43,472 nucleotides of DNA from a virus (taxonomy: Duplodnaviria > Heunggongvirae > Uroviricota > Caudoviricetes): IMG/VR virus record IMGVR_UViG_2737471820_000002; one strand, 5' to 3'. The notes below the pieces were generated by a model. That model was not told the origin of the DNA, ran no database searches, and saw only the letters and a list, made by a program, of their open reading frames with translations. Below are positions 1 to 42,218 of this stretch, piece after piece; the first letter of the stretch is position 1; every line of letters begins with the position of its first letter. Both the position numbers and the translations under genes were made by a program.

Positions 1-1275
1 TTAATCACTCAACGTCTTTAATTCTTTGAGCAATTTAGCTTTATCATCATCATTTTTAATAGATGAGATAATCTTCTCAGTTAATGCTAACAATCTAACG
101 AACATTTCGTTTAGCTCTTCATCGTTAGGTGTTTCTATACCATGAAGTAAGTTATTTCTGATTCTTTTAAAATAGTTTAGTTCAAATGACTCTTCTCGCG
201 TCAGCACTCCGTCAGAAACCAATGGCTCAAATTTTGCGGTGAAGAATTTTTTGTGCTGGCGATTGTTTTGATTATGAATTAAAGAGACTGCTTTTTCTAG
301 TAAAATCCATGTTTTAACAAATGACTCAAACCCTGATACATCCTTATGTTCCCCAAGAGCACGTTTGAAATAACTTGAAAGTTTTAAATTACCTCCAACG
401 CTCTTGTATGAATCATTAATAAACATAAGAAGCAATTGATCTGTGATTGTTTCTTTTTCACTTTGATTAATTTTACGCAAATATTCAGAAAGTTCACTGA
501 CGCTTATGCTAGAATTACCCTTGAGATAATTAAATAAAATTTTAGTATCACCTAATTTAAGTTTGCTTATATAATTCTTATTTAGTGAGTTGGTTATAAA
601 ACTCGTTAACTCATATCTATTTGAAATATTATCTTTTTCTTTAGTTCTTTTTGCTATGGCTTTTTGAAGTCTTTCAAGAGCTATTTCGCCAGTAAGCACT
701 AATCCATTAATCTCATCTAGAATTGCAAGTTCCTCTTCAGATAAATCGCCTGCTAGAGGTTTGTAAACAAGGTCATGTTCGACTTCGGACCAGGCATGCA
801 TAAGAACCGATGCTACTTGAATCTCAAATAATGCACTTTCGTAACGCTTATTATTTTGGTTAGAGTTTTTCAAATTGACACGATAATGAGATGCCCAGTA
901 ACCAGAGAACCTTTTTTCAAATTTAGGTTTATAAGATGCTTCTGGAAAGTTTTTCTTTTTCCGGACATTAAATAAAAAATTAATAGTTTCATCAACTACT
1001 TCTCTATCTTTTGGAAAATATAAAGCTACTCGAACACCGGCCAGGTCGAAAATATCTTCATATATATTAGCAACATCTGCATATGCTGACTTTTCATTTC
1101 TTTGATTAAGTTTTTGTTCTAAGCGGTCTGGTCGCTTAGCTCTGAATGAAACTATGGCTTTAATCCCTCTCTTTTCCAATTCCTGCTCGAGCAAGCTTGA
1201 GCCTATTTTTGCCAACTCAGAATAGTAATCATACTGCTTGCTATATTGTTCTAAAAAATCTTTTATGACACTCAT
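1..1275 (-). CDS. RelA/SpoT-family nucleotidyltransferase fused to a C-terminal HEPN-like domain (toxSAS/CapRel-like candidate defence protein)
   Basis: N-terminal region has synthetase-type motifs (FRAKRPDRLEQKL, DIFDLAGVRVALYF, EIQVASVLMHAWSEVEHDLVYK); C-terminal region ends with RIRNNLLHG, matching the HEPN RNxxxH signature; AGGAG-type RBS about 13 nt upstream of the ATG; very AT-rich. Confidence 0.6.
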   Translation of the reverse strand: MSVIKDFLEQYSKQYDYYSELAKIGSSLLEQELEKRGIKAIVSFRAKRPDRLEQKLNQRNEKSAYADVANIYEDIFDLAGVRVALYFPKDREVVDETINFLFNVRKKKNFPEASYKPKFEKRFSGYWASHYRVNLKNSNQNNKRYESALFEIQVASVLMHAWSEVEHDLVYKPLAGDLSEEELAILDEINGLVLTGEIALERLQKAIAKRTKEKDNISNRYELTSFITNSLNKNYISKLKLGDTKILFNYLKGNSSISVSELSEYLRKINQSEKETITDQLLLMFINDSYKSVGGNLKLSSYFKRALGEHKDVSGFESFVKTWILLEKAVSLIHNQNNRQHKKFFTAKFEPLVSDGVLTREESFELNYFKRIRNNLLHGIETPNDEELNEMFVRLLALTEKIISSIKNDDDKAKLLKELKTLSD

Positions 1276-1655
1276 AGAGACTAACTACTCCTTGTATAAG
1301 AAGATTGAATCGAATGATAAAGAAACCTAACGAACTCTAGATGAATGGGTGATAGATTATCCACTTTTGGCACTGTGATAAAGCATTTTTCTGATGAGAT
1401 CTTCCTTGCAAATGAAACTATAACATACTTTGATTATTAATATTAAACAATAATTAATGGCTGTGTTTTTTCACCATAAGGATATCTGAAGATATGTCCG
1501 CTTCTGGCACATAGCAGACCAGAGACACTGGCGTAAAGCCATGGAGGATCGGTGGGAGGAGGTAAAAATCCTCTCATGCAAAAAATATGCAAAATCGATA
1601 ACAGTTGGAAATCATTCAATACTCGCACTATCGGAAGTTCACCAGCCAGTCGTAG

Positions 1656-1700
1656 CACGTTCTTGCATACGACGTGGCTACGGGTTTCGAGACCGACCCG
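1656..1700. repeat. Copy A of an imperfect direct repeat / hairpin element (core TTCTTGCATACGACG)
   Basis: agcacgttcttgcatacgacgtggctacggg sits inside an inverted repeat (cgtagc...gctacg); a second copy lies at 2670-2712. Confidence 0.4.
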
Positions 1701-1778
1701 ATCATCAAACGAAACATAAAATTAGCTCACCTTATGAGGAAAGGTATCTTTTTTCGCTATGTAAATTCAAAGGGTTAG

Positions 1779-2648
<870 letters not shown>

Positions 2649-2669
2649 GTCTTTAAGTGATAAGCATAA

Positions 2670-2712
2670 ACCGCAGCACGATCTTCTTGCATACGACGAG
2701 CCTGCGGTTTCA
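2670..2712. repeat. Copy B of the imperfect direct repeat / hairpin element
   Basis: gcagcacgatcttcttgcatacgacgagcctgcgg is flanked by inverted arms aaccgcag / ctgcggtt; it overlaps the stop codon of the invertase remnant. Confidence 0.4.
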
Positions 2713-2990
2713 TTTATCTCCGACCGGAAACTTCTTATACAGTGTCGATATACCAACATCATAGATGATCGCCACCTTCTGGCGAGGAACGCCTGATGCA
2801 ATTAATCGCCCGGCCTGCGCCCATTGTTCATCTGTTAGGTTTGGCCTACGGCTACCTATCCAACCTCCAGTGAGTGCTCAGCTAATCCCGCCTGCGTTCG
2901 CTCAACAATCATTTCCCTTTCCATTTTGTCCAATTGTTCCCAGTACATCATGGAGAGCCCCATTAGTGCTCTGGTATTAGTGATTTCTAA
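2710..2990 (-). pseudogene. Serine recombinase (Gin/Pin/Hin-type DNA invertase) C-terminal remnant, 5'-truncated and frameshifted
   Basis: Minus-strand translation gives ...LMGLSMMYWEQLDKMEREMIVERTQAGLAEHSLEVG* then, in another frame, GWIGSRRPNLTDEQWAQAGRLIASGVPRQKVAIIYDVGISTLYKKFPVGDK*, resembling the invertase C-terminal HTH (compare Hin/Gin ...EMERELIIERT...GGRPPKLT...QVALIYDV..STLYKK); no catalytic N-terminal domain is present. Confidence 0.55.
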
Positions 2991-3121
2991 TATTTGGAGT
3001 TTAGCAGATGGCACAACCCTGATTGTGTTCCCTTCAATTGATCTATTATTTTTATCAGTTATTTAGTATGCTTACCTTATCAATTAAAGTTTCATAATTA
3101 CAAAATTGGGTCAGTATATAA

Positions 3122-4213
3122 ATGAATAAAAGAAAAACGCTTTTCAATATACAAGCACTAAGGTTTATTGCTGCAGCTATGGTGGTTTTGGCACATGCCG
3201 AACTTGGACAATATGGCATTGGGAATATCGAAATCCTTGCATCTCTGGGAGGATTTGGCGTTATTATATTTTTCATAATTAGTGGGTTTATTATACCTTA
3301 CGTAGCATATGGTGGCTCTCAATCAGAAGGAGAATTCAAAATATCTGCAGGGAACTTTTTTATGCGAAGAGTAATAAGAATAATCCCGGTATATGCTTTA
3401 ATTACCGCCCTTTGCGTTCTATCAGCCTTCATAGTAAAACATTATATATCTTCCCCAACTCCACCTATTGCTTATTGGTGGCCCGAAACAAAAATCAGTC
3501 TTCAATGGTATCTTGAGAGTATTACATTCACTCACTGGCATCGCGATGCAATTCTAAGTATAGGTTGGACATTACAACTTGAATTTTTGTTTTATACTTC
3601 TTTTGCATTTTTTATTGCTATCAAATTATCAAGGTTAGAGTATATAGAGATCTTATTTTTAACTATATCCATAGTAGCTAATATTTTAACTTATCAAAAT
3701 AACAGCATCATATTCGAAATTCTTCCGTTCATGAAAACACTGGCAAGACCAGAAATGGTCGTATTTGCTATGGGTATGTTTATGTATCGATTATACTTAC
3801 TGGGCGCTATGTTAAAAAAAACAATTGCGCTTACAATATTAACTTTGTTTATTCCCACATTCTTATTATGTGAATACTTTAATATTACAACAAACATGGG
3901 GGGGGAATGGCATCGTCCTTTGATATGGGGGTTTTTCGCTTTTTATGGTGTCTGGGCAGCGTTGAGCCTTGAAGGTAAAATAAAACCGGCTAAACTTATT
4001 ATTTTCCTCGGTGATGCTTCATATAGTATATATTTGACGCATGGTTTGATTACAGCTTGGGTATCATATATGTTTGTGTCTTTCGGACTTATTGATTATT
4101 CCAATGTATTTCTATATATTGGAATATACTTTATAATAAGTTGTGCGCTTGGCAGCGTCATTCATATGTACATAGAAAAACCCATCGCAGAATTTTTAAA
4201 ACGTTTTGTTTGA
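3122..4213 (+). CDS. Acyltransferase family 3 membrane protein (OafA/Oac-like, candidate O-antigen acetylase)
   Basis: 363 aa polytopic hydrophobic protein, N-terminal FNIQALRFIAAAMVVLAHA typical of acyltransferase_3; AT-rich; sits where the alternate tail-fibre genes of a Mu-type invertible segment would be. Confidence 0.65.
   Translation: MNKRKTLFNIQALRFIAAAMVVLAHAELGQYGIGNIEILASLGGFGVIIFFIISGFIIPYVAYGGSQSEGEFKISAGNFFMRRVIRIIPVYALITALCVLSAFIVKHYISSPTPPIAYWWPETKISLQWYLESITFTHWHRDAILSIGWTLQLEFLFYTSFAFFIAIKLSRLEYIEILFLTISIVANILTYQNNSIIFEILPFMKTLARPEMVVFAMGMFMYRLYLLGAMLKKTIALTILTLFIPTFLLCEYFNITTNMGGEWHRPLIWGFFAFYGVWAALSLEGKIKPAKLIIFLGDASYSIYLTHGLITAWVSYMFVSFGLIDYSNVFLYIGIYFIISCALGSVIHMYIEKPIAEFLKRFV
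3898..3905 (+). repeat. G8 homopolymeric tract inside the acyltransferase ORF
   Basis: atgggggggggaatgg encodes M-G-G-E-W in frame; counted directly from the sequence. Confidence 0.9.
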
Positions 4214-4265
4214 CCAAATGGTCATAACTACCCCCCTTAAAATACGAAAGTAAATAATTAGAACA

Positions 4266-4292
4266 TGTGCTTTGAGTTAAACACTCAAAGCA
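4266..4292. terminator. Putative hairpin between the acyltransferase and tail-fibre-assembly genes
   Basis: gtgctttgag-ttaaaca-ctcaaagcac, 10-bp stem, followed by an A/T-rich tract; may act bidirectionally. Confidence 0.3.
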
Positions 4293-4441
4293 CAAAATAA
4301 AAAGCGCTGCCATTGTCTATTTTGCCCCTTCTCACGCTCGTTTTTTATTTTATAATAATACACCTCCAGTTACACTGTTGTAATTAAAAGCATGAATCAT
4401 CAATTAGTTCATCCCTTAATCTAACTCTTCCCCAAACGTTC

Positions 4442-5029
4442 CTATTCTGGTTCGGTGGGCCAGTTGATATTTGGCGCAAATGAAGTATCTATAGCCTGAA
4501 TGGCTTTTATGTACTGCACCCACGCAATCAGACTTTCCTTATCCCCATCACTGATGATGTCCAGTCGCAATTCTGTCTGCCAGAGACTTATTTTATCCTG
4601 CGCTTCAGCCAGTAACGCAGCCTTCTTCTGTTCAGCGGCTTCAACATCGGCAACGTGCTGTGCGTCAGTATCTGTTACCCACTTTTTGCCGTCCCACTTT
4701 TGATATGGTCCTGATGGCGCAACAGTTGTGTACCCCTTCCTGACTGGGCCGATATAATCTATAGTGGAAGATGAGGTATCATCGGTTGAATATACCGTTT
4801 CACCACGATGCTCTTCATCCTGTCGCCATCCGGTGCCCGTGAACATAAAAACCTTTCCATCAACCATTTCACCTGGATCAACATCTGTTGAATTACCCGG
4901 CATGCTGACGCCAGCGTTAATATATTCATCTGACCAGCCAGCATATTCCATGGTCACTGCATCGTAATAAAAACAACGAATATCACCGGCCTGCGTTGCC
5001 AGACCATTTTCATCAAAGACAGGTTTCAT
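4442..5029 (-). CDS. Tail fibre assembly protein (Tfa / Mu U-like)
   Basis: 195 aa immediately downstream of the tail fibre gene with a stop/start junction; typical Tfa position and composition. Confidence 0.65.
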   Translation of the reverse strand: MKPVFDENGLATQAGDIRCFYYDAVTMEYAGWSDEYINAGVSMPGNSTDVDPGEMVDGKVFMFTGTGWRQDEEHRGETVYSTDDTSSSTIDYIGPVRKGYTTVAPSGPYQKWDGKKWVTDTDAQHVADVEAAEQKKAALLAEAQDKISLWQTELRLDIISDGDKESLIAWVQYIKAIQAIDTSFAPNINWPTEPE

Positions 5030-6114: not shown

Positions 6115-6699
6115 TTACTCCGGATATTTAAAAATTACGTAGGTATGCGACGGGCAGAGTTTGTTAAGCACACATTCGACAACGGTGTCGCCCCAGATAC
6201 GCAGCGCGGAATCACAGGGATCGCCACATGTCATCCAGGTGGTGTTTGTGGCGGCTGGCATGTTGACCTGCCAGTAATACCGCCATTCCGGCGCATTCAC
6301 CGCGTCAGTACAGGCCGATGAGCAGGTGAACGTGCTTTTGTCGTATCGCGTGATGGTAGCGTCTGGTCTGCCCAGGGCAGCAAGCTGTGCAAGATAAAAA
6401 TTCTCGTTGATGCCGCCCGCCAGGTTAACCTTCGCATCCAGCCGCTGCTGACGCTGACGAAGGGTCTGTGTCCCTGCGGGAATACATTCATCCGGCAGAC
6501 CGCACAGACGCTCCCAGCGGTTTATCAGTTCAGTGGTGGTGCGCGGATCCAGCTCCCGCATCAGGGCATCCGCACGCTGATGAACGCGGGTTAATGACGG
6601 TGCCGCACCGGCAATCGCCGGATCGCTGGCTGACCACGCCGGACCGGGGGGCAACAGTGCCGACAACAGACGGATGTAATCATCGTTTGTCACGTCCAT
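6115..6699 (-). CDS. Mu gp48-like tail/baseplate protein (YmfQ/DUF2313-like)
   Basis: 194 aa in the gp48 position after baseplate J. Confidence 0.5.
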
Positions 6700-7748
6700 G
6701 AAATCGTCCCCAGTACCGCCAGTTCATTTTTTGCAATGGAGATATTGTCTGCCGGTGCAAGCAACTGATGGCTGTATTCCCCGTTCGCACCGGAAATCGC
6801 CTCACTGATACGCGATACCTTCAGTTCTCCCTGCGGATAACCATCACGCAGCAGGAACGAACGCAACTCCGCGGTGATGGCAGCCCGTATTTCCGGTGTG
6901 TCCGGCGTCACGCGGATATGAAAATCCACCGTATGTGCCACCGGCCTGAACACATACAAATCAGAACCTGCCACCGGGGCCAGTGGCCCGATATGTTGTC
7001 TTGCCGCCGTTTCCGTTGATTCTTCAGGAATGGGATTAATCAGGTCACTGCTGGCAATCATCACACCGACAGTTCCCGTTCCCATCCAGTGACGGTATGT
7101 CCATGCGCGGGTAATGCCGGGCACTTCTTTAGCCCAGACGACATAGTCCCCGTCAGCCCCGCCCTGCGGCGTCCAGTAATACCGCTCAATGACGCGGGCG
7201 CGCCACGTTTCCAGCTCTTCAGTATCAAATCCGCCTGTCAGGGTGTCAGCCACACCGGAAGACGGCAGACCATTCACCGGCGTGACCAGGATTAATGCCG
7301 TACCGTCGTCAGCGTTACCGACCGCGCCTGCATTTGAGCAGGCGATCGGCACGCGCAGGACACCACCGGAGCTGGTTGCATCGGCAGTTGCAGTATACTG
7401 AACCAGGTCATCGCGCTGAATAACACTCCCGGCGGTCACCTTCAGGCCATCGCTGACACCTTCCCAGCGCATATACCCGCTGGCAGCCGTGGCCCCCTTG
7501 CGCGGACACCGTTTCATCGCAGCATGTCGCGCCAGCCAGGACTCATCGCACAGGTCAGGCAGCATGTTCATTGCCAGATAATCGATGTACCCGTAAACCG
7601 TATGCAGCGCCGCCGCATACACCTTTGCCCGCACGTCTTCATCCATGCGCCGGAGCGTGTCGCTGACGTCCAGCCTGGCGAATAAATCGTTACGGAGCAT
7701 ACTGATATTTTCTGCCAGCGTCGGGCGCTGAAATTCACTGTCCGCCAT
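6690..7748 (-). CDS. Baseplate J-like protein (Mu gp47)
   Basis: 352 aa, in order within the baseplate module. Confidence 0.6.
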
Positions 7749-8163
7749 GCGTTATCGCACTCCACAGATCATCAAAAGAAATCATTACCGGTCCGTCACG
7801 ACGCCAGAGAGTGATACTGTTACCCAGTTCATTAATCCCGGTGCGGCGGATATCCAGATCAATACGGGACACCACGCCGTCATCAATCATCCATTGCAGG
7901 CATTCGCGGATATACCCCCTTACCGTCAGCACCAGCTGATTGGTCAGTTTGCTGCGCTGAAGCAGCCACAGCCGGGAGCCGTAACGGTCATTCTGTACCG
8001 CAGGCCAGGTATCCCCCCACCATCCCATCGGGACGTCGGCGTTGTCATCAGGCTCCGCCCGCCGCCAGGTAAACAGGGAAATCACCACGGCGCGGGTCAG
8101 CGGATCCAGCGGTGCGCTGGCGCAGGTGCGTTTACCGTTCACCGTCAGCCACAGTTCCATCAT
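7735..8163 (-). CDS. Mu gp46-like baseplate protein
   Basis: 142 aa between baseplate V and J. Confidence 0.5.
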   Translation of the reverse strand: MMELWLTVNGKRTCASAPLDPLTRAVVISLFTWRRAEPDDNADVPMGWWGDTWPAVQNDRYGSRLWLLQRSKLTNQLVLTVRGYIRECLQWMIDDGVVSRIDLDIRRTGINELGNSITLWRRDGPVMISFDDLWSAITHGGQ

Positions 8164-8708
8164 GCCTCCATCGCTTTATCAGGTTTGTCGGTGTTACTGC
8201 CCTGACCGTTCTCTCTGTGACGATGCCCGTTATAGGCAAGCCGCATCGCTGACATGGTGGTGCCGCCGGAGTCGCACAGGTCTTTCACCTGTCCTGTCAC
8301 TTCCAGGTCCATTTCAAAACGTGCTTTAGGTGAATTGCGAAACGTGATCGTTTTACCTGCACCGTCCACCACGATCCCCTCCCGGGTCAGCGTCACGGAC
8401 TGCCCCTGATCGTCATAGACAGCCACCTCACCCGTCTGCAGCCCTTTCAGGCGGTAGCGCCGGTCCGACACCGTAACAACCACCGCATGAGAACGGTCAC
8501 CATCCGGAAACAACACCACCGCTTCCGCACCGCTGTTTGCCCTTGCGGTAAAACCGTAGGGTTCAAGATGTTCAACCCCGGCTTTGGGTTCACCGGCAAT
8601 CAGGGACACATCCACGGTCTGACATTTCGTGGCGGCACTGATACTTTTCACCACTGCCCGCCCAATCAGGCCGAGGAGTTGTCGCTGCATGGCTTCAATC
8701 GTCCTCAT
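8160..8708 (-). CDS. Baseplate assembly protein V / spike (Mu gp45)
   Basis: 182 aa; overlaps its neighbours by 4 nt. Confidence 0.55.
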   Translation of the reverse strand: MRTIEAMQRQLLGLIGRAVVKSISAATKCQTVDVSLIAGEPKAGVEHLEPYGFTARANSGAEAVVLFPDGDRSHAVVVTVSDRRYRLKGLQTGEVAVYDDQGQSVTLTREGIVVDGAGKTITFRNSPKARFEMDLEVTGQVKDLCDSGGTTMSAMRLAYNGHRHRENGQGSNTDKPDKAMEA

Positions 8709-9787
8709 CAGAACGGGTCCTCCTGTACTCTGGCTTTTTTCTTTTTCCGCGCGCCGGGGGCTTCGGGTTCAGGCAGATAAGCATCAGGTGGGCCGACACG
8801 GATTTCCGTCAGGGTGCCGTTCTGGTCCTGAGTAAACGTGACTTCCGAGACAAGCAGTTCGGTATTGTCGAAACCACAGACCGGATCGAAGACAATCACC
8901 CGCTGGTTGGGCTGCCACAGCGTACCATTACCCTGTCGCCAGCCCTGCACCACATAGGTGGTTTCATCCGTCCGCGCCGCCCGTTGTCGGGCTTCAAAGT
9001 CAGCACGCGCAATACAGCCTGCCCCCGTAGCCTGCCCTGTCTGCCTGATATACATCGGACGGTAACGGGCAATAAATGCGTCCTCTGTGCGGGCCCGCAG
9101 CGCGGTGGTGGTGGCCTCACCGAAATCATCGTCGTTTCCGGCACGCTGCCCCGCCACCTGGTAAACAGAAAACCGCTCCCGGATACTCTTCTCCGTATCG
9201 CAGGAAAGGATGTTTTCCCCAAGTACCAGCGCGGTATGTGCCCGCGTTGAGCCAATACCGCCAATCACCAGCCTGCCGTGCGTGTCGTCATAAGCCAGCG
9301 CCTGCTGCTGACCGAGTATTTTGTTAATCACCTCGATCACCGTTTCACCGTGATCAGGCTGGACATCAGGAATAACACCCGACGGCGCACCGCTGTTCAC
9401 CACCTCAATGCCGAAGGGCGCAGCAAGCGCCTGCGCAATCTGTACCAGTGATCGTCCGTTAAACTGTGTCGGTTCGGCTGCACAGTCAATCAGGTCAGCG
9501 GTCAGACTGCGTCCGGCAATACCGGTGCTGACCGAACGGGCATCGTAACGAACGGGCGTCGCCTCCACCCAGCCGGTGATCACCAGCTCATCACCAATCA
9601 GCACTTCCACTTTTGAACCGTTTTTAATGCGCGGCTGAAGCGTGGTGATACCCTCATCTCCCGGCCACTGGCGAGTGATCTCCACACTGAAATCCCGCGC
9701 CAGCCGTTCAATACCGGCACCGATGCGCACCGATGTCCAGCCATTCCACTCCCGGCCATTTACCCGTAGCGTGACATTGTCGTTCAT
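8708..9787 (-). CDS. Baseplate hub / late control D-like tail protein (Mu gp44)
   Basis: 359 aa, position after the DNA circulation protein. Confidence 0.55.
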   Translation of the reverse strand: MNDNVTLRVNGREWNGWTSVRIGAGIERLARDFSVEITRQWPGDEGITTLQPRIKNGSKVEVLIGDELVITGWVEATPVRYDARSVSTGIAGRSLTADLIDCAAEPTQFNGRSLVQIAQALAAPFGIEVVNSGAPSGVIPDVQPDHGETVIEVINKILGQQQALAYDDTHGRLVIGGIGSTRAHTALVLGENILSCDTEKSIRERFSVYQVAGQRAGNDDDFGEATTTALRARTEDAFIARYRPMYIRQTGQATGAGCIARADFEARQRAARTDETTYVVQGWRQGNGTLWQPNQRVIVFDPVCGFDNTELLVSEVTFTQDQNGTLTEIRVGPPDAYLPEPEAPGARKKKKARVQEDPF

Positions 9788-11154
9788 TGCACTGGCACCT
9801 TCAGAGGGATCACCGGCACAAAGCCGGGATGCGTAATGGCATTACGCCGGATAATGTCCGCGTCACGCGCCGCGTTATCAAACCAGGTCGCAGCCAGCAC
9901 CAGCGCGGGTAAAACCTCATCCGGCGTGCGCTGAATGATCCGTGCAGACTGTTCAAGGCGCGTGTTGATATCCGCATTCAGATCTGCTTTCACCCGGCGC
10001 AGCGCCAGAAACAGCGCATCACTGGTTGTACGGGACAACTCCTTATCAATTGCCGTATTCAGTGTGTCGCGAATGTCGGTCAGTTCTTCCCACGTTGGCA
10101 GGTCAACCGTGTTTTTCACCGCCGGTGCATTGTTCAGTGCCGGATGCGTGACAGAAGGCCAGCCGGTGCTCTGCGCGGGTGTTGTTGACTGCCCCACTGT
10201 GGCATTCTGCATCACCGCGGAAGTTGTGGGCGCAGGCAATCGTGTGACGGCATACGCCGCTTCGCTGATTGCGGTCGTACGAAGGGTGCTGGCAACCACG
10301 TTACGCTGCTGCGTCGCCGTGGCGGTGGTTTTACTGTCCGTTTTCCAGACGCCGCGCGGTTGCAGATCGCTGCCGAGGCTGACACCGGAAAGCGTTTTGA
10401 TCATGGTGACCAGGTCGCTGGCGTTACCATAAAGGCGTTTCCCGGTACGCCACATTTTCTGCACCTGCTCAACGAAATTTTTGCCTGACGATGGCGGCGG
10501 CAGAAGTACCGAGATATCCCCCTGCAACAGCCTGGCGGCATCCGATACGGCAGAATCCACCACTTTCATCGCATCAGAAACATACCCAAGCATTGTGCTG
10601 ACATTACCGACGACGTCGTTCTGCACAAAATCCGCCACGCCATCGATACTGAAACCGCTGAAGCTGTCACTGATGCAGTCATCCAGTGCAGAACAGGATG
10701 ACATCAGCGTCTGCGCCGTCGCCGCACCTGATGTGGGGTAAGAGAGTTCTCCTGCTTCGACAAACTTCAGGTCAAAACGGACAATACGCCCTTCACTCTT
10801 CGATGTGCTGACCCGAACTTCCCCGTCAACACAGACTTTCAGCTCACCGTAAGTCGGATGGACAAGCGTGCCGGGACCGGGTTTATTCAGAGCGTCAATC
10901 AGGCGATCGCGCTGGTCAAAGCAGTCATCTCCCACCACATAAGCCGTGATGGACGGGCGGAAAGTGATTTTCCCCTGGTCCTCGGTATAGGGTTTGTCGC
11001 GGTTCGGGTATTCGTGCGTTTCCACACGACGGCCGGTTCCCGCACTTTCTTCTTCAACCTTAAACGGCACACCGCGAAATGACGCGTCCTGAAGTCTGTC
11101 TTTCCACGTCATATAAACTCCGTACATAAAAAATCCCACCGGAGTGGGACTCAT
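9784..11154 (-). CDS. Mu gp43-like DNA circulation protein
   Basis: 456 aa following the tape measure gene. Confidence 0.55.
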   Translation of the reverse strand: MSPTPVGFFMYGVYMTWKDRLQDASFRGVPFKVEEESAGTGRRVETHEYPNRDKPYTEDQGKITFRPSITAYVVGDDCFDQRDRLIDALNKPGPGTLVHPTYGELKVCVDGEVRVSTSKSEGRIVRFDLKFVEAGELSYPTSGAATAQTLMSSCSALDDCISDSFSGFSIDGVADFVQNDVVGNVSTMLGYVSDAMKVVDSAVSDAARLLQGDISVLLPPPSSGKNFVEQVQKMWRTGKRLYGNASDLVTMIKTLSGVSLGSDLQPRGVWKTDSKTTATATQQRNVVASTLRTTAISEAAYAVTRLPAPTTSAVMQNATVGQSTTPAQSTGWPSVTHPALNNAPAVKNTVDLPTWEELTDIRDTLNTAIDKELSRTTSDALFLALRRVKADLNADINTRLEQSARIIQRTPDEVLPALVLAATWFDNAARDADIIRRNAITHPGFVPVIPLKVPVQ

Positions 11155-11172
11155 TAACAGATTAATTTTTCA

Positions 11173-13008
11173 TTACCTGCCAAAGCGCGTATAGCCAACA
11201 TCATGGCTGACATCAAAACCGCTGGATCGCGTTTCCATAACCCGCATACCCGGAGGCGAATTCACAAAAGAGACCTTGATCTCCCCATCAACTTTTGGCG
11301 CAGAAGCTTTGTTAATCATGAAGGGATTCGGGCCTGTGGCATCGGAGGCGTTGTTTGACTGAGCCAGATCCACCGCCGGATAAGGTGTGTATCCCCGCGC
11401 CGGTATTCCCGTCCCATAAGCATCATAAGCACCCGCGCCCCACTGCGCAGAGTTAATGGCATCGACCGTGTCACCGGAACTGTCGGTAAACCACTCAATA
11501 ATTGGCTTCAGCTTGTCCCACATATCCTGAAACCACTTAACAACCGGCCCCCAGTTATTGATCACCATCCCCAGCGGCGACCAGGCAAAAACTTTCTTAA
11601 GGAGTTCCCAGCCAGCCTCAAAATAAGGACCAATGGTTTCCCAGAGTTTCTTAAAATAAGGTCCGACAACATCCCAGTTAGTGATAATTAATCCCGCAGC
11701 CAGGGCTATCGCCGTCGCAATCATGCCAATCGGCGTCATCGACATGATCCTGCTGACAATACTGATGGCACCGCCAACGCCCATCAATCCCAGTTTCAGA
11801 ATCGCAAGACCGGCAGCAAGCCCGACGACGCCGCGAATAACCCGGGGATTTTTATCCGCAAACTTCGTGAATTTCTCCCCCAACTCCCCCAGCCACTGCG
11901 TGATATTTTTAGCGTCACCAGAAAATGCGCCGCCAATAGCCGCAAGGCCGTTAGTTGCGGTCCCTGTCATTGCCTCCCACAGGTTGGACAGCGTACCAAG
12001 CTGTGCCTGAACACGTTTATTCAGGCTGGCCTGTTTATTCATCTTCTGCTGGATCTGATCGTAGCCATCCTTTCCTTTATCGATTAGTGCATTGACCACC
12101 TGAAGGGTTTCGGCATCATCACCAAATATTGCCTTAAGTACACCTGTTCGCTTAACGTCGGTCAGTTTTCGCAGCTTTGCCAGTTGCCTGAACATGTTAT
12201 CAAGACCGCCAAAACTTCCTTTGCCGTCAGTAAAATCGAGCTGTACCCCGAGTTTCTGGCGGGCCATAACTTTATTAACGTCCCTGATTTTCTTAACGCT
12301 TAATCCGGACTGGATAACTTTTCGCAGGGCATTACCTGCCGACTCCCCGTTCATCCCCATCTGATCCATCATGACGCTGATGGGGGCAAGGCTCTGTGCA
12401 GCCTGAAGACCGTCCTTGTTCACCATCTTCAGAACAGAACTGGTTTTAGTGAAGAAGGACAACATGTTGGTATCGTCAACGCCCAGATAAAACGCCTTCT
12501 GGATAGTGTCGAACAGCCCCATCATGTCTTCTGACGCCGTTCCGGTAGCATCCTGCATCTTTGCAGCAAACTCAGCAGCCGCTTCCGGTGTTTTTTTCAG
12601 TTGTACCGCAAGATAAGCTGTCGCTTTACCCACACCACCCAGAATGTTTTCTGCCGGGATCCCCTGACGCACCAGCATCTGCATCATGTTCTGGAAATCA
12701 GCCGTTGTACCGGGTAGCTGGTTACCCAGGCCAATAGCCAGTTTATTGATGTCCTGAAAGCTCTTTCCAACCTCGCCGTTCGCATCCATCATGGCGACTT
12801 TCAGCCCGGTGGCGGCGTTTTCCTGATCGGCATAAGATTTCAGGGAAAGCGTCAGACCCGCTGCCAGTCCGCCACCAAGCGCCAGCCCACCCTGTGACGC
12901 TTCTTCCGCCTGGCGTTTAAATCCCCGGATTTTCTTTTGCATTTTCGACAGCGCGGGAGAAAGCCTGTCGACACCGGTGATCAACGCCTTAAGCTCAAAT
13001 TCAGCCAT
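11173..13008 (-). CDS. Tail tape measure protein
   Basis: 611 aa, Gly/Ala-rich with a hydrophobic segment, downstream of the chaperone pair. Confidence 0.75.
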   Translation of the reverse strand: MAEFELKALITGVDRLSPALSKMQKKIRGFKRQAEEASQGGLALGGGLAAGLTLSLKSYADQENAATGLKVAMMDANGEVGKSFQDINKLAIGLGNQLPGTTADFQNMMQMLVRQGIPAENILGGVGKATAYLAVQLKKTPEAAAEFAAKMQDATGTASEDMMGLFDTIQKAFYLGVDDTNMLSFFTKTSSVLKMVNKDGLQAAQSLAPISVMMDQMGMNGESAGNALRKVIQSGLSVKKIRDVNKVMARQKLGVQLDFTDGKGSFGGLDNMFRQLAKLRKLTDVKRTGVLKAIFGDDAETLQVVNALIDKGKDGYDQIQQKMNKQASLNKRVQAQLGTLSNLWEAMTGTATNGLAAIGGAFSGDAKNITQWLGELGEKFTKFADKNPRVIRGVVGLAAGLAILKLGLMGVGGAISIVSRIMSMTPIGMIATAIALAAGLIITNWDVVGPYFKKLWETIGPYFEAGWELLKKVFAWSPLGMVINNWGPVVKWFQDMWDKLKPIIEWFTDSSGDTVDAINSAQWGAGAYDAYGTGIPARGYTPYPAVDLAQSNNASDATGPNPFMINKASAPKVDGEIKVSFVNSPPGMRVMETRSSGFDVSHDVGYTRFGR

Positions 13009-25638: not shown

Positions 25639-26691
25639 TTATTTCCCCACCAGTTCACTTACCTCTTTCACCGTCTGATTAAACCGCTCTGACTCAAGTT
25701 CAACACCTAACGCCCGACGCCCCAGCGCCATTGCCGCTTTTATTGTGGAACCGGATCCCATAAAGAAATCAGCAACCAGATCGCCTTGTCGACTACTGGC
25801 ACTGATTATTTGCCGGAGCATATCCGCGGGCTTCTCACACGGATGTTTACCCGGGTAGAACTGAACGGGTTTATGCGTCCAGACGTCGGTATAAGGCACG
25901 GAAACTGATACGGAGAAATAGCGCCGGAGAGTTTTAAACTCATCCAGCAATTCAGAATATTTGCGATTCAGTGAATCATAAGATGCCACCAGCTGGTGGT
26001 GTGGTTGTTCCAGTTGTTGTTCCTGAAATTTCTCTGCCGCTATACGGGAAAACAGTGCCTGCAACTTCCGGTAGTCAGCCTCATTCGGCAACTGCCACTG
26101 ACTGGCACCAAACCAGTGGGAAACCATATTTTTCTTACCAGTGGCTTCGGCAATCTGTTTTGCCGTTATACCCAGTTCGGCACGAGCATCCCTGAAATAC
26201 GAAATCAGCGGTGCCATTATGTGCTGTTTGAGTTGACTTTCTTTTGCCGCATAGCCGTCACTTTTGCCGCGATATGGTCCCTGGTAATGTTCAGCAAACA
26301 GAACGCGTTCTGTTGCGGGAAAATATGCGCGCAGACTTTCTTTATTACACCCGTTCCATCGTCCGGACGGCTTCGCCCAGATAATATGGTTAAGAACGTT
26401 GAAACGTTCACGCATCATGATCTCGATATCAGATGCGAGGCGATGTCCACAGAACAGGTAAAGGCTTCCGGCAGGTTTCAGCACCCGCCAGAACTGAGCC
26501 AGACAGTGGTCCAGCCACTTCAGGTAATCTTCGTCCCCTTTCCACTGATTGTCCCAACCGTTGGGTTTCACCTTGAAGTACGGCGGATCGGTAACAATCA
26601 GGTCAATGGAATCATCAGGCAGGGACTGAATAAAATGCAGGCAATCAGCGTTGATTAAATCAGCACTGTTTATTTTCACAGTATTTTTCAT
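25639..26691 (-). CDS. DNA methyltransferase (N6A/N4C class, DPPY motif)
   Basis: IVTDPPYF motif and C-terminal FFMGSGST SAM-binding motif. Confidence 0.75.
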   Translation of the reverse strand: MKNTVKINSADLINADCLHFIQSLPDDSIDLIVTDPPYFKVKPNGWDNQWKGDEDYLKWLDHCLAQFWRVLKPAGSLYLFCGHRLASDIEIMMRERFNVLNHIIWAKPSGRWNGCNKESLRAYFPATERVLFAEHYQGPYRGKSDGYAAKESQLKQHIMAPLISYFRDARAELGITAKQIAEATGKKNMVSHWFGASQWQLPNEADYRKLQALFSRIAAEKFQEQQLEQPHHQLVASYDSLNRKYSELLDEFKTLRRYFSVSVSVPYTDVWTHKPVQFYPGKHPCEKPADMLRQIISASSRQGDLVADFFMGSGSTIKAAMALGRRALGVELESERFNQTVKEVSELVGK

Positions 26692-27613: not shown

Positions 27614-28696
27614 ATGAAAAAATTAACAGTGGCAATTTCTGCTGTAGCTGCATCAGTACTGATGGCGATGTCTGCTCAGGCAGCTGAAATTTATAATAAA
27701 GACAGTAACAAGCTGGATCTGTACGGGAAAGTTAATGCTAAGCACTACTTCTCCTCTAATGATGCAGATGATGGTGATACTACTTATGCCCGTCTTGGCT
27801 TCAAAGGTGAAACCCAAATCAACGATCAACTGACTGGTTTCGGTCAGTGGGAATATGAATTCAAAGGCAACCGCGCTGAATCTCAAGGTTCCTCCAAAGA
27901 CAAAACCCGTCTTGCATTTGCAGGCCTGAAATTCGGTGACTACGGCTCAATCGATTACGGCCGTAACTACGGTGTAGCATACGACATCGGTGCGTGGACT
28001 GACGTTCTGCCAGAATTCGGTGGCGATACCTGGACCCAAACAGATGTATTCATGACTGGTCGCACCACAGGTGTTGCAACTTATCGTAACAACGACTTCT
28101 TTGGTCTGGTTGATGGCCTGAACTTTGCAGCTCAGTATCAGGGCAAAAATGACCGAAATGAAGTAACTGAAGCTAATGGCGATGGTTTCGGTTTCTCAAC
28201 TACTTATGAGTATGAAGGATTCGGCGTGGGTGCAACCTATGCTAAATCTGATCGCACTAATAATCAGGTTATCTACGGTAACAACGGTCTGAATGCTTCT
28301 GGTCAAAATGCTGAAGTATGGGCAGCTGGTCTGAAATATGATGCGAACAACATCTATCTGGCCACCACCTATTCTGAAACCCAGAACATGACTGTTTTTG
28401 GTAATAACCATATTGCCAACAAAGCACAAAACTTCGAAGCTGTTGCACAATATCAGTTCGACTTCGGCCTGCGTCCATCCGTTGCTTACCTGCACTCTAA
28501 AGGAAAAGACTTGGGTGTTTGGGGTGATCAGGACCTGGTTGAATATGTTGATGTAGGTGCAACCTATTACTTCAACAAAAATATGTCCACTTTTGTTGAC
28601 TACAAAATCAACCTGATTGATAAGAGCGATTTCACGAAAGCATCTGGCGTTGCTACCGATGATATCGTTGCTGTAGGTATGGTTTACCAGTTCTAA
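27614..28696 (+). CDS. Outer membrane porin (OmpC/NmpC/Lc family)
   Basis: Signal peptide [30 protein letters not shown]...LDLYGK start and C-terminal ...VGMVYQF beta-barrel signature; long AT-rich leader. Confidence 0.85.
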
Positions 28697-28884: not shown

Positions 28885-29268
28885 TTAATTAGAGTTATTA
28901 ACAACGATATCCATCTCTAACCGGATATCTAATGCCATTAACATCCCTTCAATTATGCCCTCAGCCTTTTGTAACCTTTTCCCGATATAACCATCAGAGC
29001 AGCAATGCTTACCTGCCAGTGACATGAATGTCATACCGACTATATAATAATCTACTAATAAATCGTGCAAATCGCTGTTGTTCTTTTTCAGACGGGCCAT
29101 GCACCCGCAAATGATCATCGCGTCATCGTCACAACATTGCGGGCGAGATTTTACTTTTGAAGGAATTAATCCCTTAAAACCGGCGGCAATGGACGACCAG
29201 GTCACATCTTCATGATTATTAGCCGCCCACGCTCCCCAACGCTCAAGAACCATCTGAATATCACGCAT
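28885..29268 (-). CDS. Q: Late antiterminator Q (phage 82 / DLP12 QuuD type)
   Basis: [22 protein letters not shown]... with a Cys cluster, matching DLP12 Q; start taken at the internal ATG. Confidence 0.75.
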
Positions 29269-29356
29269 CAACTTACTCCACAAAAATCAGACCAAAACGC
29301 CAATTACAAGCAAAAATCAACAAAACAGTATTAGTTGATTGTTATCTCTGACTTCA

Positions 29357-31686: not shown

Positions 31687-32439
31687 TTACTCCTTTTTGG
31701 GTGCATACACGTTGTTTATCCGTTCAATATGAATAGTTACATCCGGGCTTTCTAAGAATAAGAAGTCAATCAAATGACCAATGAGAATGCAGGCATCATT
31801 AATAGAGGACCTTGTGACTTTAATCCCTCCATGACTGCCGTGATTCCCCAACCACTTTAACGCCATGAATGCATCTTTATTTGGTCCCAGTTTATCTGAA
31901 TAATTTGTGATTCTTTCATGCGTAGAAAGACGTATTATCTTGCCTTTAACTGTTTTCTCTCTTGGTACATCAAGACTATCAAGCATCATCTCCAGTATGG
32001 TTCTCATGGTGTTCACCGCTGAAGCTGGGTGCGAGGGGATCAGAGCTGATACTTCCGCCAAGAGATCAGCTATATCTTCAGGGCACTTTTCAGGAAACAG
32101 GAATAGAGGAAGTGGTGGATAGAAATACTTAGGACGGAAACCAGAAACATACCAACGCTCCGTCATTTCGTCATTGAAGCATTCTACAGCAACAACCTGC
32201 CCAGACAAAGCAACCTTCTCCTGGCAGGCTTGGCGGGTACAGCGCAGCACGCAACTGAATACTCCTCCCGACATTTCCTCATCAAACCATACTTCATCTC
32301 TAAACTGAGTTGTTGCGCTTGAATCAGTTTCTACAAAACTATCAGCGACAATCTCCAGTGTTTCATTCATACAGTTCGGGCAGCGCCAAGCTGGTGCGTC
32401 ATTTCGTTTAAACGTGGCATACAGTAATTTAGGATCCAT
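31687..32439 (-). CDS. Zinc-ribbon protein with C-terminal HEPN-like (possibly DUF4145-like) domain, gene 1 of the nin-region cassette
   Basis: 250 aa; N-terminal Cys cluster WRCPNC...SCVLRC...QAC; C-terminal KWLGNHGSHGG aligns with RIRNNLxHG but lacks the Arg; GGAG RBS 9 nt upstream; AT-rich. Confidence 0.45.
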   Translation of the reverse strand: MDPKLLYATFKRNDAPAWRCPNCMNETLEIVADSFVETDSSATTQFRDEVWFDEEMSGGVFSCVLRCTRQACQEKVALSGQVVAVECFNDEMTERWYVSGFRPKYFYPPLPLFLFPEKCPEDIADLLAEVSALIPSHPASAVNTMRTILEMMLDSLDVPREKTVKGKIIRLSTHERITNYSDKLGPNKDAFMALKWLGNHGSHGGIKVTRSSINDACILIGHLIDFLFLESPDVTIHIERINNVYAPKKE

Positions 32440-39008: not shown

Positions 39009-39163
39009 AGCATCCTCGCGATAATATCCGGGTAGGCGCGATCACTTTCATCTACTCCGTTACAAAGCGAGGCTGGGTATTTCCCGGCCTTTCTGTTATC
39101 AGAAATCCACTGAAAGCACAGCGGCTGGCTGAGGAGATAAATAATAAACGGGGGGCTGTATGA
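39005..39163 (+). CDS. Small hypothetical protein, translationally coupled between exo and the methyltransferase
   Basis: 52-aa [55 protein letters not shown] with ATGA overlaps at both ends. Confidence 0.35.
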
Positions 39164-39717
39164 CTGATTTCACCGGAAGCAATACTCCTGCCGAACATCG
39201 CGACAGCTGGCGCACACCACCAGAGATTTTTGCTGCGCTTAATGCAGAGTTCGTTTTTCAACTTGATGCTGCAGCCAGCGAAAAAAACCGACTATGTCGG
39301 CTTTTTATCTCACAGGAGCAGAACACATTAACCACTTCATGGCCTGAAGCAATGGGATATGCCTCTGGTTATGTCTGGTTGAATCCACCATACAGCAATA
39401 TTTCCCCTTTTGTGAAAAAGGCAGCCACTGAAAACAAATTCAGTAGTGTGGGATGTGTAATGTTATTGCCTGCTGACACATCTGTCGGATGGTTTCATGA
39501 AGCGATACAAACCGCCAGTGAGGTCAGATTCATCACGGCAGGACGACTGGCATTTATTAACCCACTCACTGAGAAACCCGTCAGTGGAAATAATAAAGGC
39601 TCGATGCTCATTATCTGGCACCCATACCCCCGTACACACTGCCACTTTACGACCGTTGATCGTGGAGAGTTGATGGCGTTCGGCTCAAGGATTCTTGCCC
39701 GTCGGGAGGCTGCATGA
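39160..39717 (+). CDS. Phage Dam-type DNA N6-adenine methyltransferase
   Basis: NPPY motif (WLNPPYSN) and overall resemblance to the phage Dam family. Confidence 0.7.
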   Translation: MTDFTGSNTPAEHRDSWRTPPEIFAALNAEFVFQLDAAASEKNRLCRLFISQEQNTLTTSWPEAMGYASGYVWLNPPYSNISPFVKKAATENKFSSVGCVMLLPADTSVGWFHEAIQTASEVRFITAGRLAFINPLTEKPVSGNNKGSMLIIWHPYPRTHCHFTTVDRGELMAFGSRILARREAA

Positions 39718-40652: not shown

Positions 40653-40974
40653 GGCCTGTCAGTTTCTTAAGATATCCAGACCAACCGCCACCAACTGGAT
40701 ACGAACAGGCCGCCTACAGGCAACACGCAAAGACCCCACTAAACCAAAATCTCCTTACCTCACAACGCGACAAGCCTGCATTGCGGCGCTTCAGTCTCCG
40801 CTGCATACTATCAAGGTGAGCGCGGGTGATGGCATAACAGAGGAAAGAAAATGTCACTCTTCCGCAGAAGTGAAATATGGTACGCCAGTTTCACATTGCC
40901 GAACGGTAAAAGATTTAAACAGTCTCTTGGAACAAAGGACAAAAGGCAGGCGACAGAGCTCCATGACAAGCTAA
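40624..40974 (+). CDS. xis: Excisionase (AlpA/Xis-like HTH); 3' boundary uncertain
   Basis: [36 protein letters not shown] is an Xis-type HTH; overlaps the int 5' end as lambda xis does. Confidence 0.5.
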
Positions 40975-42014
40975 AGGCTGAAGCATGGCGGGTCAGCAAA
41001 CTTGGTGAAATACCTGATATGACGTTTGAGGAAGCGTGTGTCAGGTGGCTCGAAGAGAAAGCACATAAAAAATCACTGGACGATGACAAAAGCCGGATCG
41101 GATTCTGGCTTCAACATTTCGCAGGAATGCAACTAAGAGACATTACTGAATCAAAAATTTATTCAGCAATGCAGAAAATGACGAACCGGCGTCATGAGGA
41201 AAACTGGAAACTCAGGGCAGAAGCATGCAGAAAAAAAGGGAAACCTGTTCCAGAATACACGCCAAAACCAGCGTCCGTTGCAACGAAGGCTACGCATCTT
41301 TCATTTATAAAGGCCCTACTAAGAGCCGCAGAGCGTGAATGGAAAATGCTGGATAAGGCACCAATTATTAAAGTGCCTCAACCAAAGAATAAACGGATCC
41401 GCTGGCTGGAGCCCCATGAAGCACAAAGGCTGATTGATGAATGTCCGGAGCCATTAAAGTCTGTTGTTGAATTTGCACTGGCAACAGGCTTAAGACGCTC
41501 GAACATCATCAACCTTGAATGGCAACAAATAGATATGCAGCGCCGGGTGGCATGGATAAACCCGGAAGAGAGTAAATCAAACCGCGCAATTGGCGTTGCG
41601 CTGAATGATACTGCATGTCGCGTATTGAAAAAACAAATCGGGAATCATCACCGTTGGGTATTTGTGTACAAGGAAAGCTGTACCAAACCAGACGGAACGA
41701 AAGCGCCAACAGTAAGGAAGATGCGGTATGACGCAAACACAGCCTGGAAAGCGGCGCTGAGACGGGCTGGTATTGATGATTTCAGATTTCACGACTTGAG
41801 ACACACCTGGGCAAGTTGGCTGGTTCAAGCCGGAGTCCCGTTGTCAGTGTTACAGGAAATGGGAGGCTGGGAGTCTATCGAAATGGTTCGTCGATATGCT
41901 CACCTTGCACCTAATCACCTTACCGAACACGCACGGCAAATAGACTCGATCCTGAACCCATCGGTCCCAAATTTGTCCCAGTCAAAAAATAAGGAAGGTA
42001 CTAATGATGTGTAA
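40851..42014 (+). CDS. int: Tyrosine integrase
   Basis: 387 aa; C-terminal [10 protein letters not shown]...VRRYAH catalytic motifs; adjacent to the tRNA 3' end. Confidence 0.9.
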
Positions 42015-42028
42015 CTTATTGATTTTAA

Positions 42029-42104
42029 TGGTGCCGATAATAGGAGTCGAACCTACGACCTTCGCATTACGAATGCGCTGCTCTACCAACTGAGCTATAT
42101 CGGC
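42029..42104 (-). tRNA. thrW: tRNA-Thr (anticodon CGU)
   Basis: Minus-strand sequence GCCGATATAGCTCAGTTGGTAGAGCAGCGCATTCGTAATGCGAAGGTCGTAGGTTCGACTCCTATTATCGGCACCA has GTTCGA T-loop, anticodon CGT flanked by T and A, and 3' CCA. Confidence 0.85.
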
Positions 42105-42218
42105 CCTGAAAGGACATGTTCACGAACGTGAATCACGGTGGACAAGGTTAAAACTAACCGGGCGATGCGTCAATGGCCTTGTGAATCAAATGGCTACTTT
42201 TGCATCACCCGGTTTTAT

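Follow-up and report, generated by a model that had tools for sequence, protein, structure and literature searches.

Introduction

Toxic small alarmone synthetases (toxSAS) and HEPN RNases are two of the main translation-targeting weapons of bacterial immunity, and to our knowledge they have so far been studied only separately. Among the HEPN enzymes, PrrC and RloC are anticodon nucleases set off by phage, and the dimerisation of the HEPN domains of RNase L, Ire1 and PrrC is governed by the nucleotide that the N-terminal domain binds or turns over. All four are counted as HEPN proteins in a survey of the superfamily (PMC3710099). Every SAS studied so far in a conflict system has been reported to be a toxic effector, and single-chain precedents are available for both kinds of enzyme, namely CapRel for toxSAS and FhepTA for HEPN (PMC7641770, PMC13000451). 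CapRel(SJ46) is a prophage-encoded tRNA pyrophosphokinase that constitutes a fused toxSAS toxin-antitoxin, and in FaRel2 both D90 and Y128 are required for toxicity and catalysis according to the literature, which also describes a basic patch on which the tRNA-targeting toxSAS rely. In type VII HepT, a tyrosine two residues after the histidine (Rx4HxY) is the site that is oligoAMPylated by MntA. The PANGU system is bicistronic, with an activating nucleoid-associated protein (Pag1A) and a GRel toxSAS (Pag1B) that ends in an acidic domain mimicking DNA, makes (p)ppGpp and does not modify tRNA (bioRxiv 10.64898/2026.04.06.716658).

Here we describe a family, represented by a prophage gene of E. 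coli, that appears to unite both enzymes in one chain with both active sites maintained. A RelA/SpoT-HEPN fusion was not described in the literature that we searched, of which our coverage was incomplete, such that an earlier description is possible.

The fusion gene lies at the end of an E. coli prophage

The DNA analysed in this study (hereafter the window) is a stretch of 43,472 bp (IMG/VR record IMGVR_UViG_2737471820_000002) that corresponds to an E. coli prophage integrated at thrW, encoding tRNA-Thr(CGT) (42029-42104), next to which lie the integrase gene (40851-42014) and a host gene of the Aldedh family (42219-43472). The fusion gene is a complete ORF of 424 aa at 1..1275 on the minus strand, with an ATG start, a TAA stop codon at window positions 1-3 and a Shine-Dalgarno-like AAGGAG 13 nt upstream of the ATG, and its predicted product consists of a RelA/SpoT synthetase, a helical middle region and a HEPN domain. 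The same protein is present in RefSeq as WP_052318513.1, where it is annotated as 'GTP pyrophosphokinase'; PADLOC v2, NCBIfam, PHROGs and the source annotations likewise recognise the synthetase part alone. A non-coding segment at 1276..1495 (minus strand) forms the upstream part of the mobile cassette, and prophages without the fusion gene match the window only from approximately position 1496 on. This segment contains a promoter-like TTAATA-18-TATAGT (with TG) at 1417-1446, from a scan in which the number of sites was no higher than in shuffled sequence, and an Rfam scan of window positions 1-3200 returned no match.

The position of the gene relative to the prophage boundary could be determined from strain T16R, in which a 64-bp repeat of the 3′ part of tRNA-Thr (4590-4653 of the T16R sequence) lies approximately 350 bp past the fusion stop codon and precedes a yagP remnant and paoD. 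As this repeat follows just past the stop, the fusion gene is the last gene inside the prophage, before attR, in agreement with a preliminary description of the locus that had placed it in the accessory tip of the element. That description had also called the gene very AT-rich, and indeed its GC content is 32.6%, while the window as a whole has 49.7% and the block of structural genes 55.7%. The neighbouring gene (1875-2648), divergent from the fusion gene, is a full-length match (E=2.6e-140) to PD-T4-3, also known as CMoRE, an experimentally characterised type IV restriction enzyme acting against DNA with hydroxymethylated or glucosylated cytosine. In strain IrN the same site is occupied by a sibling prophage whose cargo slot holds two different genes, one of which has a match to PDC-S64.

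The N-terminal domain is a small alarmone synthetase

The first 185 residues (721..1275, minus strand) comprise a long N-terminal helix and the RelA/SpoT synthetase (SYNTH) core. The Pfam RelA_SpoT profile (PF04607) matches aa 45-172 (nt 760-1143) with E=1e-13 and 52 bits against a cut-off of 27, and it also matches 20/20 aligned relatives. No HD hydrolase, TGS or ACT domain was found in the window protein using Pfam at E<=10, an absence that is the criterion separating the SAS class from long RSH enzymes. The key synthetase residues are R45, K47, D77 (the Mg2+ Asp, in DLAGVR), Y126 (the acceptor-stacking Tyr), H130, E151 and Q153. The preliminary description had proposed a RelA/SpoT synthetase from motifs that we located exactly where it had put them (RAKRPDRLEQKL at aa 45, DLAGVRVALYF at aa 77 and EIQVASVLMHAWSEVEHDLVYK at aa 151, together with the C-terminal RIRNNLLHG at aa 371), and the profile score and the full complement of catalytic residues bear it out. 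All relatives of at least 52% identity possess D77, Y126, E151 and Q153 (119/119 for each); among the 94 full-length representatives obtained by clustering at 50% identity, R45 is found in 92, D77 in 92, Y126 in 93, E151 in 93 and Q153 in 94. D77 and Y126 are the counterparts of FaRel2 D90 and Y128.

The nearest solved structures for this domain are the single-domain enzymes RelQ, RelP, YjbM and YwaC, whether the search is made by sequence or with the family profile. RelQ and RelP (SAS1/SAS2; PDB 2BE3, 5DEC, 6EWZ) give the best sequence and fold matches for aa ~40-180 and have the same catalytic motifs; however, these enzymes consist of a single domain of ~210 aa, belong to the core genomes of Firmicutes and have EIQIRT and GYR, whereas the fusion protein has EIQVAS and GYW, adds a 240-residue C-terminal extension and is encoded by mobile cargo. 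A full-length AlphaFold model (pLDDT 77) matched RelQ/RelP-type enzymes plus CapRel in Foldseek, in each case with the synthetase domain only. The synthetase fold thus resembles that of CapRel (PDB 7ZTB; Foldseek E=6e-5), including the presence of the Mg2+ Asp and the acceptor-stacking Tyr. In sequence, the family profile did not recover CapRel (7ZTB/9ERV), FaRel2 or Tas1 from the PDB, and because all three were missed the synthetase appears to be an SAS lineage apart from them. We rejected membership of the CapRel subfamily on two counts: the profile misses CapRel and recovers RelQ/RelP, and the C-terminal domain is predicted to be HEPN. The sole tblastn match in the phage database, a Vibrio inovirus protein, was also discarded as a relative, being a distant SAS with canonical EIQVRT and without HEPN.

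The synthetase domain is charge-neutral (pI 6.9). Given that the tRNA-targeting toxSAS need a basic patch, this neutrality and the affinity to RelQ/RelP lead us to weakly favour a nucleotide, more than tRNA, as the pyrophosphate acceptor.

The C-terminal domain has the features of a HEPN RNase

The region assigned to HEPN (aa 296-424; 4..390, minus strand) carries the motif R373-N-N-L-L-H378, encoded at 142..159 on the minus strand. By itself the motif is weak evidence, as R....H occurs in 30% of shuffles of the window protein and RN...H in 2.5%, and a second, unconserved R....H (RALGEH) is present at aa 305; we consider it real because it is conserved. R373 is present in 117/119, N374 in 119/119 and H378 in 119/119 of the relatives of at least 52% identity, and the corresponding figures for the 50%-identity representatives are 91/94, 84/94 and 86/94, with W323 and E327 kept too. 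A 20-sequence alignment reaching down to 52% identity shows no variation at R373, N374, H378 or G379.

The window protein itself has no match to a HEPN Pfam family at E<=10. When 20 relatives were searched, PF01934 (HepT-like, the DUF86 branch of the HEPN superfamily) matched 15/20 (best 3.7e-6), DUF4145 12/20 and HEPN_Swt1 9/20; six relatives reached the PF01934 gathering score (23.5) with 23.5-27.1 bits, over a stretch that includes the RNxxxH motif. These matches and the conservation of the motif support the HEPN-like C-terminus proposed in the preliminary description. According to the published criteria, a HEPN domain has an Rx4-6H motif where helix 3 gives way to the loop before helix 4, the arginine being followed by a polar residue, as well as a conserved acidic residue in helix 2 and a variable insert between helices 2 and 3 (PMC3710099). 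The C-terminal domain conforms to this four-helix fold, with predicted helices at 314-336, 360-377, 385-403 and 409-423: helix 360-377 terminates in R373-N374-x3-H378, after which come a loop and helix 385-403, helix 314-336 contains W323 and E327 (the latter part of an E-x3-R in many members), and residues 337-359 form a variable insert. PDB sequence searches with the HEPN region of a single relative and with a 16-sequence profile gave chance matches only, and Foldseek of a 235-aa C-terminal model against the PDB found nothing significant. On the basis of motif, topology and the profile matches of its relatives, we assign aa ~296-424 as a HEPN domain, and predict that the C-terminal half is catalytically competent as an RNase in ~90% of lineages and in most members. 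HEPN domains located C-terminal to nucleotidyltransferases have usually lost the RNase motif (PMC3710099), which makes its retention here unusual.

Architecture and conservation of the family

A word-indexed search identified more than 2,600 relatives, and the best 120 of these are full-length proteins of 417-450 aa except for one partial entry of 331 aa. An exhaustive profile search with aa 190-424 recovered 445 cluster representatives at 50% identity (198 at E<=1e-10), nearly all of which match at approximately residues 190-420 of proteins of 410-450 aa; the family is found in Proteobacteria, Bacteroidota and Calditrichota. None of the 445 representatives has the C-terminal module behind any other N-terminal domain. 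Apparent standalone C-terminal modules (matches of ~250-280 aa) proved to be truncated gene calls starting at an internal MHAWSEVEHDLVYKP (MHAWSEVEH). The exclusive occurrence of the C-terminal module behind a RelA/SpoT synthetase argues for obligate coupling. In a few of the proteins, an additional C-terminal extension or an HTH tail is present.

Conservation is highest in the synthetase core and in the linker helix at aa 186-214 (LDEINGLVLTGEIALERLQKA...; 634..720, minus strand), the latter being the most conserved segment of the entire protein, and lowest in the middle region, the HEPN insert and the tail. A conserved synthetase and linker joined to a variable C-terminal half is what would be anticipated of a protein whose specificity resides in the C-terminal half. 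Both catalytic sets are intact in 79/94 representatives, and the conservation of their residues indicates that both are under purifying selection. A further 10/94 representatives keep all eight synthetase residues and have the HEPN R or H replaced; a core synthetase residue is lost in only one of the 94 (E151G). This asymmetric loss of sites suggests that the synthetase is the indispensable activity and that the HEPN fold serves for more than catalysis.

The same asymmetry bears on the question of which domain is the effector. The synthetase could be the sole effector in a strictly CapRel-like manner, with a non-cleaving HEPN-like domain acting as an autoinhibitory or sensor scaffold, or as a substrate-binding domain in which R373 and H378 would contact nucleotide or tRNA phosphates. 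Such an arrangement would fit the greater conservation of the synthetase half and the dispensability of the HEPN R or H in some lineages, and it is not lacking in precedent, since the C-terminal domain of CapRel both inhibits and senses, and HEPN-type substrate-binding domains sit C-terminal to nucleotidyltransferases in kanamycin NTase and GlnE (Table 1 of PMC3710099). We nevertheless regard it as distinctly improbable, because the arginine, the polar asparagine, the histidine and the upstream E327 are all kept in ~90% of representatives, and the HEPN survey counts precisely this combination of R, polar residue, H and acidic residue as an RNase active site (PMC3710099).

Conversely, the HEPN RNase could be the only effector and the RelA/SpoT domain a nucleotide-dependent switch, operating either through HEPN dimerisation or through a messenger, (p)ppGpp or (p)ppApp-like, passed to sibling molecules. 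In the fused and paired NTase-HEPN systems FhepTA and HepT/MntA it is the NTase that regulates the RNase, and the extreme conservation of the linker helix between the two halves suggests allosteric coupling; the neutral, RelQ/RelP-like character of the synthetase, at odds with the basic patch of tRNA-targeting toxSAS, and the survival of a HEPN motif that is usually lost in this position would also be in keeping with such a switch. Against this, the ~10% of divergent lineages in which the HEPN R or H is replaced and the synthetase site is perfect are hard to explain with the RNase as the sole output, and the literature holds no SAS known as a pure regulator. We consider this possibility unlikely, if worth retaining.

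The helical middle region at aa 215-295 (391..633, minus strand), one of the most variable parts of the protein, matches no profile or fold and contains no recognised messenger-binding domain (CARF, SAVED etc.), which also counts against an RNase-only output; we regard it as a candidate sensor or regulatory module. In a more specific form of the messenger idea, the protein would be a self-contained signalling unit of immunity: once infection is sensed, the RelA/SpoT domain would make an alarmone-type messenger ((p)ppGpp, (p)ppApp or a new 3′-pyrophosphorylated species) that activates the HEPN RNases of sibling molecules in trans, with aa 215-295 as the receptor. If true, this would place synthase and RNase effector in one chain, comparable to OAS/RNase L or Cas10/Csm6 and based on alarmone chemistry, although we judge it very unlikely.

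The fusion gene travels as a single-gene cassette

DNA homology between the E. coli and Serratia loci is limited to -227 to +93 bp around the ORF, and no conserved neighbours were found, with 21 flanking proteins from nine loci showing no BLASTP similarity. Together these limits rule out a partner, antitoxin or NAP gene. Closely spaced neighbours exist at the Aeromonas and Rufibacter loci but are unrelated to each other, and in no locus examined does an MNT gene adjoin the fusion gene. The gene is present in 3/5,426 complete E. coli genomes, and a protein with more than 90% identity occurs in at least eight genera, represented among others by E. coli, Klebsiella, Serratia, Dickeya, Rahnella, Mangrovibacter and Zymobacter. 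Its GC content is 29-37% across hosts, with flanks ranging from 36 to 62%. The fusion gene travels, in other words, as a single-gene, AT-rich, partner-less cassette. In Serratia it adjoins Hachiman and a HEPN_LA2681 protein; the Vibrio copies lie in integrase islands that also encode Mrr, Abi_C, EcoRII, type I RM and HipA; in Citrobacter the gene is located within an ICE; and one metagenomic locus is an integrase island with type IIG RM, PLD and Fic. Two loci have no obvious defence genes near the fusion gene.

The last observation, and the fact that the nearest solved relatives are housekeeping SAS enzymes, would be compatible with a protein that takes no part in conflict, namely an accessory alarmone synthetase of the stress response, equipped with a tail for RNA binding or processing, that adjusts the physiology of the host in the lysogenic state. 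RelQ, for one, is regulated by RNA. Such a role appears highly improbable to us in view of the patchy spread in E. coli, the near-identity across many genera, the persistently low GC content, the location in a variable cargo slot beside a validated defence gene and the recurrence in islands and an ICE; patchiness, cross-genus identity, low GC content and a cargo slot are typical of mobile defence or toxin cargo, unlike physiology genes.

Comparison with described systems

CapRel(SJ46) offers the closest overall parallel in that it too is a single-chain, prophage-borne protein without a partner gene, with the synthetase first and a variable C-terminal half. In contrast to CapRel, the C-terminal half of the fusion protein is not the antitoxin/sensor domain of that system but a helical region followed by a putative HEPN domain, and would thus provide a second catalytic centre. 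The presence in the C-terminal half of what is itself predicted to be a HEPN RNase makes the fusion unlike any described toxSAS.

The HepT/MntA and FhepTA systems (PMC7641770, PMC13000451) differ from the fusion protein in that their transferase is a minimal MNT adenylyltransferase rather than a RelA/SpoT pyrophosphokinase, and there is a ~100-residue extra helical region between the domains of the fusion protein when compared with HepT/MntA. The fusion motif reads RNxLLHG followed by I, V or F, and a tyrosine is found at this position in only one member of the 20-sequence alignment. Membership of type VII HepT/MntA was rejected, as the N-terminal domain is RelA_SpoT and not MNT and the Tyr of Rx4HxY is absent. 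Cis-AMPylation in the manner of MntA is likewise unlikely, since there is no acceptor Tyr and the pocket keeps the base-stacking Tyr that is typical of nucleotide or tRNA acceptors.

Like the fusion protein, Pag1B of PANGU (GRel toxSAS; bioRxiv 10.64898/2026.04.06.716658) is a single chain made up of a toxSYNTH domain, a linker that is helical and a C-terminal domain, and the two further share a G-loop Tyr at a similar position (Y129 in Pag1B, Y126 here) and an anti-phage context. Measured against the published description of PANGU, a type I/GRel assignment was nonetheless rejected: no partner gene is present, and the C-terminal half, with its HEPN motif, has a pI of ~8.6 (8.57 for aa 215-424, net charge +2). 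In PrrC, RloC, RNase L and Ire1 an N-terminal nucleotide-handling domain also controls or accompanies a C-terminal HEPN RNase; their N-terminal domains (ABC-type ATPase, kinase or pseudokinase) are unrelated, and the likeness is one of layout.

The preliminary description had read the protein as a RelA/SpoT nucleotidyltransferase and a HEPN-like C-terminus in one polypeptide whose architecture could not be matched to a characterised family. That reading is supported here, and the protein falls outside CapRel, type VII HepT/MntA and PANGU alike. By analogy, the fusion protein would work most like the fused toxSAS defence proteins, with a layout in common with NTase-HEPN modules.

Proposed mode of action

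The reading that we favour, and hold to be plausible but not quite an even prospect, is that the fusion protein is an autoinhibited, phage-triggered anti-phage toxin of the fused toxSAS (CapRel-like) type, with two mutually inhibiting warheads and, in its regulatory half, a usually active RNase. The gene would encode a single-gene mobile conflict protein of the abortive-infection type, carried as cargo at the prophage end. Its N-terminal RelA/SpoT synthetase would be the indispensable toxic enzyme, moving pyrophosphate from ATP either to the 3′-OH of a purine nucleotide, such that alarmone is made and ATP/GTP are drained, or to the CCA end of tRNA. The faster-evolving C-terminal half, composed of the middle region and the HEPN domain, would keep the synthetase inactive and serve as the specificity or sensor module. 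In the closed state the synthetase may block HEPN dimerisation and the C-terminal half may occlude the synthetase site; once opened by a cue from infection, the protein would strike translation twice, by pyrophosphorylation and by RNA cleavage. A potentially toxic enzyme, or two, encoded without a partner or antitoxin gene has to keep itself in check until a cue releases it, which is the arrangement in CapRel and FhepTA. The data establish which domains are present, that both catalytic sets are conserved, that the gene moves as a single-gene cassette and that it sits among mobile elements and defence genes; from these we infer the toxicity, trigger, substrates, mutual autoinhibition and defence phenotype of the fusion protein.

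If it is a defence toxin, the fusion would provide a compact single-gene E. coli model for asking whether two catalytic warheads can restrain each other, whether an SAS product regulates an RNase, and whether hitting translation twice denies phages an escape by alarmone hydrolases or tRNA repair. The 'GTP pyrophosphokinase' label is misleading on thousands of database entries and is corrected by the RelA/SpoT-HEPN assignment, which also adds a candidate to defence-finder tools that now see the synthetase domain only.

A variable cargo slot at the prophage end

The end of the prophage that carries the RelA/SpoT-HEPN gene is a variable cargo slot, since in the sibling prophage of E. coli IrN, integrated at the same thrW/paoD site, this gene is replaced by two unrelated hypothetical genes (positions 3069-3986 and 4256-4759 of the IrN locus, equivalent to window ~1-1495). 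A 305-aa protein from the IrN slot matched the candidate PDC-S64 (2e-16) over its N-terminal part only. Just outside the cassette boundary (~1496) lies a ~100-bp segment (window 1580-1688) with counterparts of about 90% nucleotide identity in unannotated DNA of HK97, HK106 and many Stx-converting phages. At this position the RefSeq annotation has an 81-nt pseudogene fragment labelled 'capsid protein', and the segment may be either a recombination scar or conserved regulatory DNA.

The divergent neighbour of the RelA/SpoT-HEPN gene is a full-length homologue of PD-T4-3 (window 1875-2648, plus strand; PADLOC E=2.6e-140; Pfam LEM-3_GIY-YIG), which starts at a TTG at 1824 in the mechanical ORF versus 1875 in the RefSeq CDS. 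In published work PD-T4-3 is described under the name CMoRE as a restriction enzyme of type IV that targets 5hmC/5ghmC DNA. In E. coli T16R a fosA3 module for fosfomycin resistance, flanked by IS26, truncates the prophage beside pinE (7706-11400 of that locus), and the remnant left by this truncation consists of the RelA/SpoT-HEPN gene and PD-T4-3.

At the right end of the window (40851-43472), where host DNA is reached, the integrase gene (40851-42014) abuts tRNA-Thr(CGT) (42029-42104), which is followed by an Aldedh-family (proA-like) gene extending up to 43472. The matching 64-bp att repeat falls outside the window, ~350 bp to the left of position 1, as seen in the T16R and IrN loci and in loci L001 and L002.

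Other genes of the prophage

An Acyl_transf_3 gene of low GC content, resembling an O-antigen acetylase moron (window 3122-4213), adjoins a Pin/PinE DNA invertase remnant (about 2856-3014) within window 2700-4213; in related prophages pinE is intact at the equivalent place and is accompanied by an invertible tail-fibre segment. A prophage-encoded porin (27614-28696, plus strand; Porin_1, E=3.6e-152) lies in a patch of 37.7% GC; on one side of it is the Q antiterminator (28885-29283), on the other a DNA methyltransferase (25639-26691, minus strand; PADLOC MTase_II, 2e-152). Together with a second phage DNA methyltransferase (39160-39717, plus strand; orphan MTase, 8e-32), the latter probably provides anti-restriction functions of the prophage. 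The second HEPN-clan gene of the prophage (31687-32439, minus strand) encodes a 250-aa protein with a DUF4145 domain (E=7.9e-12) and a Cys-rich, zinc-ribbon-like N-terminal region; the protein has KWLGNHGSH in place of the R..GN..H usual for DUF4145 proteins.

Variants and relatives of the RelA/SpoT-HEPN protein

Some family members (P0124, P0158, P0227, P0229 and P0235) carry additions C-terminal of the HEPN domain; in P0124, a 355-aa, N-terminally truncated call, this is a LuxR/GerE-type HTH tail. The ~140-residue extensions of the 560-580 aa forms had no Pfam match. At one locus only, that of the P0088 homologue, an HD_4 gene of the RelA/SpoT hydrolase type, small-alarmone-hydrolase-like (2263-2805 of that locus, minus strand), lies 3 kb upstream on the opposite strand, and may represent either coincidence or a detoxifying partner. 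A distant SAS of 336 aa is encoded by the filamentous phage Vibrio inovirus 10N.261.45.F7_PE002A (6571-7581 of locus L017), with 28% identity over the synthetase part and a PDC-S33 match (1e-17). Its C-terminal half differs from that of the RelA/SpoT-HEPN protein, and thus this synthetase type is also phage-carried with other tails.
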